In this document: one piece after another, positions 1,721 to 15,646 of the stretch
Layout: each line of letters starts with the position of its first letter
Numbering within the stretch: position 1 is the first letter of the stretch
Assembly (NCBI RefSeq): GCF_003334315.1
Contig: NZ_QOWR01000024.1
From: Escherichia coli
GTDB lineage: Bacteria; Pseudomonadota; Gammaproteobacteria; Enterobacterales; Enterobacteriaceae
Reading direction: 5' to 3' (one strand)
DNA: 64,000 bases
Program-made: the position numbers and the translations under genes
The notes under the pieces: generated by a model
Told to the model about the DNA's origin: nothing
The model's database searches: none
What the model saw: the letters and a program-made list of their open reading frames with translations, nothing else

Positions 1721-2467
1721 ATGAGCCAATATCTGATTTTTCAGCTTCATGGGCCGATGGCGTCCTGGGGTGTCGATGCTCCAGGTGAAGTTCGTCATAC
1801 CCATGAACTTCCTTCGCGCTCAGCATTGCTGGGGCTACTGGCTGCCGGGGTAGGGATTCGGCGTGATGATACCGAACGCTTAAACGCGTTTAATCGCCAC
1901 TATTCACTGGTGGTTTGCGCCAGCCGTAACCCGCGCTGGGCACGGGATTATCACACGGTCCAGATGCCAAAAGAGGTGCGTAAAGCACGTTATTTCAGCC
2001 GTCGCGAAGAGTTGAGCGACCCTGAGCTTTTGAGCGCGATTATCTCCCGGCGCGACTACTACACCGATGCCTGGTGGATGGTGGCGGTGGCAACAACCCC
2101 CGATGCGCCTTACAGCCTCGAACAGTTGCAGGACGGTTTACGCCATCCGGTTTTTCCGCTTTATCTGGGGCGAAAAAGTCATCCGCTGGCGTTACCACTT
2201 GCGCCGTTACTGCTCGAAGGCAACGCGTCTGATGTCTTACGTAACGCATACCAACAGTATCAGGATCGTTTCCGCGAACTGAAAGTCTCACTCCCGAAAC
2301 TTCAGGATGAATGCTGGTGGGAAGGGGAGCACGATGGTTTGGTCGCAAGCAAAATATTACGCCGCCGGGATGTTCCTTTAAATCGTCAGCAGTGGCTGTT
2401 TGGGGAACGCACCATCAATCAGGGGCCGTGGCTCAGCAAGGAGGAACCATGTACCTCTCAAGAATAA
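1721..2467 (+). CDS. casD: CasD/Cas5e, 248 aa
   Basis: N-terminus MSQYLIFQLHGPMASWG resembles Cas5e (K-12 CasD MRSYLILRLAGPMQAWG); operon position. Confidence 0.85.
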   Translation: MSQYLIFQLHGPMASWGVDAPGEVRHTHELPSRSALLGLLAAGVGIRRDDTERLNAFNRHYSLVVCASRNPRWARDYHTVQMPKEVRKARYFSRREELSDPELLSAIISRRDYYTDAWWMVAVATTPDAPYSLEQLQDGLRHPVFPLYLGRKSHPLALPLAPLLLEGNASDVLRNAYQQYQDRFRELKVSLPKLQDECWWEGEHDGLVASKILRRRDVPLNRQQWLFGERTINQGPWLSKEEPCTSQE

Positions 2468-3095
2468 CCTTACATACCGGCCAGCTTTCGCCTGCGCAGT
2501 TGCTGCATCTGGTGGATCGCGGTGAATATGTGATGCATCAGTGGTTGTGGGATCTCTTCCCTGGCGGCAAAGAAAGGCAATTTCTTTATCGTCGGGAAGA
2601 ACTCCAGGGCGCGTTTCGCTTTTTTGTCCTCTCGCAGGAACGCCCGGCAGAAAGTGAAACTTTCACCATCGAATGCCGGTCATTTACGCCCGAGCTGAGT
2701 ACCGGACAACAACTTTGTTTCAACCTGCGGGCGAATCCAACAATCTGTAAAGCGGGCAAGCGCCACGATCTGCTGATGGAGGCGAAACGGCAGGTGAGGG
2801 GACAGGCGGAAGGAAGTGATGTCTGGTTGCATCAACAACAGGCGGCGCTGGACTGGCTGGCAGCGCAGGGGGAAAGAAGTGGTTTTACACTACTGGATAC
2901 CTCGGTTGATGCCTACCGACAACAACAACTCCGGCGGGAAAACTCCTGGCAACTGATCCAGTTCAGTAGTGTGGATTATACGGGGATGCTTACGGTCACC
3001 GATCCTGGGTTATTTCTGCAACGTCTCAGTCAGGGGTATGGCAAAAGCCGGGCGTTCGGTTGTGGTCTGATGCTGATCAAACCTGGAGCAGAGGC

Positions 3096-3099
<4 letters not shown>
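2449..3099 (+). CDS. casE: CasE/Cas6e crRNA endoribonuclease, 216 aa
   Basis: Start moved to internal ATG 2449 (MYLSRITLHTG, matches Cas6e N-terminus MYLS...) preceded by AGGAGG at 2438-2443; overlaps casD 3' end. Confidence 0.85.
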
Positions 3100-4309
<1,210 letters not shown>

Positions 4310-4404
4310 GTTATCCGTTCTTTAAAAATAAGGAAATGTTTTAATTTAGTTGGTAGATTGTTGATGCGGAATAAATTTGTTTAAAACAGTTATGTATGCT
4401 TAGT
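4310..4404 (+). promoter_or_regulatory. CRISPR leader (AT-rich, between cas2 stop and first repeat)
   Basis: 95-bp AT-rich segment directly upstream of first repeat, downstream of cas2; standard leader position for I-E arrays. Confidence 0.6.
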
Positions 4405-4921
4405 GTGTTCCCCGCGCCAGCGGGGATAAACCGGAGCGTAGAGATTCTCGAAACCGATCCGGACGGTGTTCCCCGCGCCAGCGGGGATAAACCGAATAAA
4501 TAATAATCCAGTAGCCCCATGTATTAGTGTTCCCCGCGCCAGCGGGTATAAACCGGTAATAAAAAATATTCTATTTCTGCTGAATCAGTGTTCCCCGCGC
4601 CAGCGGGGATAAACCGCTTGCGAGCAAAAGATCCAGGCCGAGAAAGACGTGTTCCCCGCGCCAGCGGGGATAAACCGCGATAACCGCGTCAGTATTGGAC
4701 AGGATATCAGTGTTCCCCGCGCCAGCGGGGATAAACCGAATCTATTGTGAATTTGAAATGGTCCAGCACTGTGTTCCCCGCGCCAGCGGGGATAAACCGG
4801 GTAAAAACACGGTCTGAACCGACATTCATGTGTGTTCCCCGCGTCAGCGGGGATAAACCGGGCGCACTGGATGCGATGATGGATATCACTTGGAGTTCCC
4901 CGCCCCTGCGGTAGAACTCCC
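4405..4921 (+). CRISPR. Type I-E CRISPR array, 9 repeats (29 bp) and 8 spacers (32 bp each)
   Basis: Repeat GTGTTCCCCGCGCCAGCGGGGATAAACCG starting at 4405, 4466, 4527, 4588, 4649, 4710, 4771, 4832, plus degenerate terminal copy GAGTTCCCCGCCCCTGCGGTAGAACTCCC at 4893; period 61 bp; single-base variants in repeat 3 (GGGTATAAA) and repeat 8 (GCGTCAG). Confidence 0.97.
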
Positions 4922-4941
4922 AACTCCCATTTTCATACCCA

Positions 4942-5979
4942 TCAAGACGCCTTCGCCAGCTCCTTCACCAGCGGTAGCATTATCCGCATAACATCACGGC
5001 AGCGACGTTCTATTCTTCCTGGAAGTGCCTTATCAATATGTTGTTGATTATCCAGTCTTACGTCATGCCAGCTATTTCCCGCAGGGAATGCAGCTGTTTT
5101 TGCGCGTTGCTGATAACCATCCTTATTCCCAAGATTCCAATTTGTTGCTTCTACCGAAAGTACGGCAATACCGGCTTTGTCGAAAACTTCGGCGTCATTA
5201 CAACAGCCAGTACCCTTCGGATAATTTTTATTCAAACCCGGATTGGTCGTTGCGGCAATTCCATGACTACGCGCAATTGCCAGTGCCCTGTCGCGCGTTA
5301 ATTTCCTTACTGCTTCAGGGGTTTTTACACCACTGTTGAAATACAATTTATCGCCAACAATTAAGTTATCGAGATTAATCACCAGCAGCGTATTTTTCTT
5401 TTCGGTGTCACTCATCCGCTTGAGTAAATTCTCAGCGCCTAATTTCCCTTCCTCTTCACCGCTGGTCGCTACAAATCGAATACCATACTCGGTAGGCGTA
5501 TTTTTCAGGCGTTCTGCCAATTCCAGCATGACACCTAAACCTGCGGCGTTATCATCCATTCCTTGTAACGTCAGCCCGCCGAGATTGGCATCGGCGTCAG
5601 CATCGCTCAGCGGGGCGTAAGTATCCAGATGCGCCATAATGATGATCTGCTGCGGCGCTTTGCCTTCATGAGCGGCAATCACCGTACTTCCCGTCACGTT
5701 ATGCCAGCTCTTACGATTATCGCGGGCGGTATAAATATACCGACTATTAAATGTCCGAATATCACTGCGATAACCCATTTGCTGAAACTGTTGGCGAATA
5801 TAATCGGCAGATAACATTTCTGCAGGAGTTCCGGTCATGCGTCCCGGAAAGAAAGTAGCAATATGTCGTGCCTGAGTATTAGCAAAATCGCCAGGTTTAG
5901 GTGACGAGGCGTGTACGGGGAGAATAAAGCATACGCCGAGCGCCAGGGCAGCGGTACGGTGGCGCAATGCGGAAAACAT
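4942..5979 (-). CDS. iap: Alkaline phosphatase isozyme conversion aminopeptidase, 345 aa
   Basis: Protein MFSALRHRTAALALGVCF... and length match Iap; position between CRISPR array and cysD. Confidence 0.9.
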   Translation of the reverse strand: MFSALRHRTAALALGVCFILPVHASSPKPGDFANTQARHIATFFPGRMTGTPAEMLSADYIRQQFQQMGYRSDIRTFNSRYIYTARDNRKSWHNVTGSTVIAAHEGKAPQQIIIMAHLDTYAPLSDADADANLGGLTLQGMDDNAAGLGVMLELAERLKNTPTEYGIRFVATSGEEEGKLGAENLLKRMSDTEKKNTLLVINLDNLIVGDKLYFNSGVKTPEAVRKLTRDRALAIARSHGIAATTNPGLNKNYPKGTGCCNDAEVFDKAGIAVLSVEATNWNLGNKDGYQQRAKTAAFPAGNSWHDVRLDNQQHIDKALPGRIERRCRDVMRIMLPLVKELAKAS

Positions 5980-15007: not shown

Positions 15008-15646
15008 ATGAGTCAGAATACGCTGAAAGTTCATGATTTAAATGAAGATGCGGAATTTGATGAGAACGGAGTTGAGGTTTTTGACGAAAAGGCCTTAGTA
15101 GAAGAGGAACCCAGTGATAACGATTTGGCCGAAGAGGAACTGTTATCGCAGGGAGCCACACAGCGTGTGTTGGACGCGACTCAGCTTTACCTTGGTGAGA
15201 TTGGTTATTCACCACTGTTAACGGCCGAAGAAGAAGTTTATTTTGCGCGTCGCGCACTGCGTGGAGATGTCGCCTCTCGCCGCCGGATGATCGAGAGTAA
15301 CTTGCGTCTGGTGGTAAAAATTGCCCGCCGTTATGGCAATCGTGGTCTGGCGTTGCTGGACATCCTGGCCGATGAAAAAGAGAACGGTCCGGAAGATACC
15401 ACGCAAGATGACGATATGAAGCAGAGCATCGTCAAATGGCTGTTCGAGCTGAACGCCAAACAGCGTGAAGTGCTGGCACGTCGATTCGGTTTGCTGGGGT
15501 ACGAAGCGGCAACACTGGAAGATGTAGGTCGTGAAATTGGCCTCACCCGTGAACGTGTTCGCCAGATTCAGGTTGAAGGCCTGCGCCGTTTGCGCGAAAT
15601 CCTGCAAACGCAGGGGCTGAATATCGAAGCGCTGTTCCGCGAGTAA
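15008..15646 (+). CDS. rpoS: RNA polymerase sigma S (RpoS) allele with in-frame internal deletion; 212 aa instead of 330 aa, predicted non-functional
   Basis: N-terminal 118 aa ([21 protein letters not shown]...[11 protein letters not shown]) and C-terminal 94 aa ([14 protein letters not shown]...[10 protein letters not shown]) match RpoS; regions 2.2-3 (e.g. YATWWIRQ) absent. Confidence 0.9.

Follow-up and report, generated by a model that had tools for sequence, protein, structure and literature searches.

Maturation of the crRNAs of type I-E CRISPR-Cas systems depends on the endoribonuclease Cas6e, which cuts each repeat at a short hairpin. The resulting 3' handle spans 21 nt with a 7-bp stem and a 4-nt loop, and the cut lies 8 nt upstream of the spacer (PMC5965381), directly after G21 of the repeat (PMC3683919; PMC3890593). 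In Cas6e, Cas6f and TtCas6A/B, a beta-hairpin of the protein is straddled by the terminal base pair of this RNA structure (PMC3902920). Loop sequences vary among I-E systems and the GC-rich stem is conserved, according to both the repeat table and the text of PMC3890593. In vitro, Cascade requires every one of the eight nucleotides in the 5' handle and accepts nearly any 3' handle (PMC4288178). In E. coli, the I-E system is silenced by H-NS, and the catalytic residue of K-12 CasE is H20 (PMC5965381). At the iap end of the E. coli array known as CRISPR-I or CRISPR2.1, a tandem of a degenerate repeat and a spacer has been described as an "anchor", proposed to resist loss via recombination with other repeats (PMC3903273).

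Here, we analyzed three deviating repeats in an array of this kind, carried on a 64,000-nt stretch of E. coli DNA (the window). The array shares its position, 29-nt repeat, 32-nt spacers and 61-nt period with CRISPR-I/CRISPR2.1 (Diez-Villasenor 2010; Almendros 2014, PMC3903273), and, like K-12, O157 and most other strains, it ends in the spacer GGCGCACTGGATGCGATGATGGATATCACTTG followed by a degenerate terminal repeat of the same type. It differs from K-12 in having 8 spacers and a cas-E1 set, where K-12 has E2, and nothing is different in kind. Two further differences concern the repeats: the penultimate loop reads GTCA here versus ATCA in K-12 and O157 and GCCA in other strains, and the third repeat carries a private G21T. 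The hairpin resembles those recognized by the K-12 and T. thermophilus Cas6e enzymes in having a GC-rich stem, a loop of 4 nt, a cut after position 21 and an 8-nt 5' handle; however, the Cas6e encoded here is 27% identical to K-12 CasE, and specificity transfers from K-12 or T. thermophilus by inference only.

Layout and polarity of the CRISPR2.1 locus

Gene order in the window is casB-cas7-cas5-cas6e-cas1-cas2-leader-array-iap, as given by the open reading frame list and the annotation of strain CP53, the closest complete genome. The features that matter for the following analysis are:

Start of window: casA, cut by the window edge, followed by casB, cas7 and cas5
2449..3099, + strand: cas6e (CasE/Cse3), the repeat-cutting endoribonuclease, intact, cas-E1 variant (TIGR01907 profile)
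4016..4309, + strand: cas2, the last cas gene ahead of the leader (open reading frame list; the counterpart of cas2e annotated in CP53)
4310..4404, + strand: AT-rich CRISPR leader of the cas-E1 type, 95 nt (from the sequence)
4405..4921, + strand: CRISPR2.1 array, 9 repeats (R1-R9) of 29 nt and 8 spacers of 32 nt
4527..4555, + strand: R3, GTGTTCCCCGCGCCAGCGGGTATAAACCG, with G21T at window position 4547 as its sole difference from the consensus
4832..4860, + strand: R8, GTGTTCCCCGCGTCAGCGGGGATAAACCG, with C13T at window position 4844, a tetraloop base, as its sole difference from the consensus
4861..4892, + strand: spacer 8, leader-distal and conserved species-wide, GGCGCACTGGATGCGATGATGGATATCACTTG
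4893..4921, + strand: R9, terminal degenerate "anchor" repeat, GAGTTCCCCGCCCCTGCGGTAGAACTCCC
4942..5979, - strand: iap, convergent, bounding the array (open reading frame and CP53 annotation)

Repeats R1-R9 start at 4405+61i, a period of 61 nt, and their consensus is GTGTTCCCCGCGCCAGCGGGGATAAACCG. We scanned for the consensus core with at most one mismatch and recovered 8 copies, against none in 100 shuffles. The repeat is palindromic with a GC-rich stem and a 4-nt loop, the array lies directly downstream of cas1-cas2 and the AT-rich leader with iap at its far end, and a cognate, intact cas6e gene is present. Its product is a TIGR01907 equivalog (288.9 bits; cutoff 45.2), and the gene is identical over this span to the cas6e annotated in CP53. 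Identity to K-12 CasE reaches 27% only, and His30 aligns with position 20 of that protein. The two enzymes serve near-identical repeats (GTG... here versus GAG...), in line with the known cas-E1 and cas-E2 variants. The original prediction of a Cas6e (type I-E) array is thus borne out by the protein profile, the repeat architecture and the locus.

The tandem of an iap-proximal conserved spacer and a degenerate anchor repeat further places the array in CRISPR2.1. The leader matches those of CP53 and of a metagenome locus (L011) except for a 1-nt difference in an A-run. The array and its flanks are 99.7% identical to an annotated CRISPR/iap region in at least 29 complete E. coli genomes, and the array region has a partial or full match in 4,298 of the 5,426 complete genomes searched. 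This is a standard E. coli CRISPR2.1 array of the kind already described. Taken together, we consider it very probable that the array is the type I-E locus CRISPR-I (CRISPR2.1) on the chromosome of a cas-E1 strain and that its three repeat deviations are three unrelated events.

Polarity was deduced earlier from the degenerate last repeat, taken to mark the leader-distal and oldest end. The order cas2, AT-rich leader, R1 to R9 and iap confirms the leader-distal position, and the age of this end is borne out by spacer sharing that is nested from iap. Spacer 8 occurs in nearly all strains, and the longer shared blocks extend from it: K-12, O157 and others share spacer 8 alone, SCU-171 shares spacers 7-8, G4/9 and L011 share spacers 6-8, and strain 600055 shares spacers 2-8, differing only in the leader-proximal spacer. 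As judged from these shared spacers, the evidence for polarity reaches beyond the degenerate repeat itself.

Transcription of the array would start from the leader adjoining cas2; the lack of a strong sigma-70 consensus in a simple scan of the leader carries no weight. None of the 8 spacers targets the window itself at up to 8 mismatches. Spacer 7 (4800-4831) and the repeat G just before it match at 33 of 33 positions in the phages P1, P7 and SJ46, within the upf94.2 or "LexA regulated function" gene (L034; phage P7, 93995-94027). The bases at the PAM position of the P7 target are CTG, which differ from AWG, the PAM motif of K-12. A minus-strand open reading frame of 112 aa across the array (4585-4923) is a repeat artefact and no gene.

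Two observations outside the array concern the strain background. In CP53, cas3 is an annotated pseudogene with an internal stop (5774-8473 of L033, upstream of the window), and copies of IS421 and IS5 lie between cysH and cas3. Given this state of cas3 in the nearest relative, the array may be under no selection, and the functional question would then be moot. Within the window, rpoS (15008-15646, + strand) carries, relative to CP53, an in-frame internal deletion of 354 bp that is bounded by a pair of 12-bp direct repeats (GCGTTGCTGGAC) and has its junction at about 15350-15361. The deletion removes 118 codons and leaves a product of 212 aa, versus 330 aa. In a search of the junction against 5,426 genomes, all among the top matches listed carry the undeleted allele; the deletion looks rare or private, and the allele is probably a loss-of-function one.

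Folding of the variant repeats

The consensus repeat folds into a 7-bp stem (positions 5-11 with 16-22) that closes a GCCA loop at positions 12-15, in agreement with the 7-bp stem and 4-nt loop of the published handle (PMC5965381; PMC3683919; PMC3890593). Folding the variants alongside it gave the following structures:

Consensus: no change; -15.2 kcal/mol; 7 pairs
R8: C13U in the tetraloop; -15.2 kcal/mol; stem unaffected
R3: G21U at the bottom of the stem, 5' of the cut; -10.1 kcal/mol; loss of the two lowest pairs
R9: 10 changes spread over the repeat; -12.6 kcal/mol (for an alternative, extended hairpin); retains the upper 4 canonical pairs

The original prediction had called a G to T change in R3, a C to T change in R8 and a degenerate R9, and all three calls are exact in base and position. 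It had also held that the change in R8 breaks the stem of the hairpin, and here the folds disagree: position 13 is a loop base, and R8 keeps the fold and the energy of the consensus. When R8 was folded with both flanking spacers, all stem-pair probabilities were equal for T and C. C13U is therefore predicted to be structurally neutral.

The stem is broken in R3 instead, by a change on which the original prediction had made no remark. In the bottom C6-G21 pair, position 21 provides the 3' partner, and the Cas6e cut follows directly after it. In its spacer context, G21T lowers the probabilities of pairs 5-22 and 6-21 from 0.91 and 1.00 to 0.06 and 0.00, respectively, while the upper five stem pairs persist. 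These models reverse the earlier structural reading, and the concern over processing would belong to R3, not R8. R9 has 10 of 29 mismatches to the consensus, still in the 61-nt register; it retains the upper 4 of 7 stem pairs, without the GGGG|AUAAACCG cleavage context.

Separate histories of the three deviations

To follow the R8 variant across the species, we used a 40-mer in which every seed includes T13 and which extends over the first 11 nt of the last spacer. It finds T13 in the penultimate repeat of 2,757 complete E. coli genomes, a count that reflects inheritance of one or a few events and not repeated tests of tolerance. The count for the corresponding C13 40-mer is uninterpretable, since any consensus repeat followed by a few chance spacer bases matches; we therefore used the T13 count and the tandem total. 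The loop of the penultimate repeat is GTCA in the window, CP53, G4/9, SCU-171 and 600055, ATCA in K-12, O157 and L011, and GCCA in 504838, FORC_069 and AR24.2b. In K-12 and O157, T13 is accompanied by G12A. C13T is an old polymorphism, present in about half of complete E. coli genomes.

Repeat variants of both kinds also occur elsewhere. A metagenome array (L012; contig JADHEE010000210.1, 622-894) has four consecutive T13 repeats, as would be expected if the loop variant was copied each time a spacer was acquired. The same array ends in another degenerate terminal repeat, GTCTTCCCCGCCTTAGCGGGGATAACCCA. In CRISPR-I of K-12 MG1655 (L002), the loops of R11 and R13 read GTTA and ATCA, both leader-distal, and G18A in R12 breaks the C9-G18 stem pair. 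Stem and loop repeat variants exist even in the model strain.

The far end of the array has a different distribution. Spacer 8 is common to K-12, O157 and most sampled arrays, and the stretch of spacer 8, R9 and flank is found, one copy per genome, in 4,223 of the 5,426 complete E. coli genomes at 90-100% identity. R9 differs across strains by a few point or 1-nt indel differences only. Spacer 8 and the terminal repeat form an ancient tandem that most of the species has inherited. A scan with the terminal-repeat 19-mer CCCGCCHCTGCGGTAGAAC over one genome per species gave no match in Escherichia or related species, and no cross-species dating of the anchor repeat was obtained from it; the E. 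coli representative genome presumably lacks the CRISPR2.1 locus. The 17 matches to this 19-mer are unrelated sequence, nine of them contigs of one Saprospiraceae MAG.

R3 stands apart from both. A 55-mer centred on its T21, in which each 28-nt seed must include the T, has no match in any of the 5,426 complete genomes of E. coli with the threshold relaxed to E<=10, and CP53 has G at 4547. Over the first 10 kb compared, this G and the A-run in the leader (4382, 1 nt) are the only differences between CP53 and the window in the array region. In the metagenome collection, a base other than G at position 21 of the same repeat occurs in 3 contigs only, each in a different array (two G21A and one G21T), all in spacer contexts other than that of R3. 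From this distribution, G21T would be either a recent private mutation or a base-call error. The single metagenome G21T repeat lies in L012, after the four T13 repeats and near the trailer end.

The original prediction had grouped the three deviations into a pattern of decay along the array. The deviations themselves stand, whereas the gradient of erosion does not, since their ages are unrelated. A better account is an anchor repeat that is ancient and fixed, a loop polymorphism that is old and neutral, and a private change that may be an error.

Alternative readings and predicted processing

It has been stated in general that Cas6e binding and cleavage can be lost when one nucleotide of the repeat is changed (PMC11317134), which would be an argument that C13T breaks the stem of R8 and impairs processing of the flanking crRNAs (spacers 7 and 8). 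We give this reading almost no weight: position 13 comes second in the tetraloop, minimum free energy structure, energy and pair probabilities are the same with C or T, the same T13 occurs in all of the genomes counted above, with G12A added in the K-12 version, and L012 carries it in four successive repeats. I-E loops also differ between systems with a conserved GC-rich stem (PMC3890593). The call in R3 deserves more caution, as a sequencing or assembly error at 4547 would leave an array identical to those of CP53-like strains and without any stem variant. The absence of G21T from all complete E. coli genomes searched, at least 29 of which have the same array with G, speaks for an error, as do two single-base homopolymer deletions relative to CP53 (4382 and 13789), an error type of some platforms. 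However, G21T is a substitution in non-repetitive context, outside any homopolymer, and the strain has truly diverged from CP53, with 11 other substitutions in 49.6 kb in addition to the private rpoS deletion. At this SNP density, the 232 nt that make up the non-terminal repeats would hold about 0.06 SNPs, so that a single one is uncommon, though not remarkable, and a natural G21T exists in L012. We regard an error as unlikely overall. The two homopolymer deletions, A5 to A4 in the leader (4379-4382) and T5 to T4 in the pcm-nlpD intergenic region (13789), may be real or consensus errors, and they bear on how far the G21T call can be trusted.

The very wide conservation of R8, spacer 8 and R9 (4,223 genomes) could also point to a function of the tandem beyond anchoring, either as a CreR-like regulatory crRNA that represses a cas promoter by partial complementarity or as a transcription terminator for the array or for iap. 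Degenerate mini-CRISPRs in Salmonella were reported to autoregulate I-E cas genes (bioRxiv 10.1101/2023.03.10.532045), and the tandem resembles CreA/CreR mini-CRISPRs in that a spacer lies between imperfect and degenerate repeats and the 5'-handle part of the upstream repeat is intact. It differs from them in that it ends a normal array instead of lying in a cas intergenic region, and has no partial target at the cas promoters covered: across the window and 10 kb of CP53 spanning cysI-cas3-casA, spacer 8 has no PAM-proximal seed match of at least 10 nt, which leaves CreR-like autoregulation unsupported. An extended hairpin is available to R9 (-12.6 kcal/mol; z = -5.0), yet the O157-type allele (GAATTC...GAACAC) disrupts its outer stem with no compensating change. 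With this variation between alleles, and with no terminator-like site of a GC-rich hairpin and a T-run on either strand of 4200-5100, we rejected a terminator role. Vertical descent and protection from recombination explain the conservation (PMC3903273), and a separate function for the tandem seems highly improbable to us.

The predicted effects of the three deviations on processing can be considered one by one. Cas6e would cut every repeat hairpin after position 21, and C13U in R8, with stem and cleavage site intact, should leave the processing of crRNA-7 and crRNA-8 unaffected. R9 is probably not cut, so that crRNA-8 would have a correct 5' handle from R8 and an undefined 3' end. Following the published "anchor" idea, the divergence of R9 would shield the last unit from repeat-to-repeat recombination.

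In R3, G21U would undo the two lowest pairs of the hairpin, C6-G21 and U5-A22, where Cas6-family enzymes are straddled by the terminal pair. Because it loses the bottom pair and alters the base beside the scissile phosphate, cleavage of R3 is the step at risk, and a real G21U should reduce or abolish the cut between spacers 2 and 3. At this cut, crRNA-2 obtains its 3' end and crRNA-3 its 5' end. Since Cascade needs the full 5' handle and tolerates variation in the 3' handle, the main loser would be crRNA-3, which requires an exact 8-nt 5' handle, whereas crRNA-2 would merely gain an extended 3' end of the kind tolerated by Cascade in vitro. G21T is accordingly the single-base variant for which an effect on processing is plausible. 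That G21U is real and still cut by the cas-E1 Cas6e (or cut 1 nt off), or that spacer 8 and R9 together yield a functional non-canonical crRNA, would surprise us considerably. If such processing of G21U were true, the cas-E1 Cas6e would need neither the bottom base pair nor a G at the cleavage site.

For E. coli arrays, all of this is textbook matter and already known: the last repeat is degenerate, leader-distal spacers are conserved, and a repeat occasionally varies by a single base. The useful outcome of this analysis is a correction: the variant flagged in R8 is predicted to be a neutral loop polymorphism, common to thousands of strains, and the plausible effect on processing lies with G21T in R3, which may be a base-call error and otherwise would mainly cost spacer 3.
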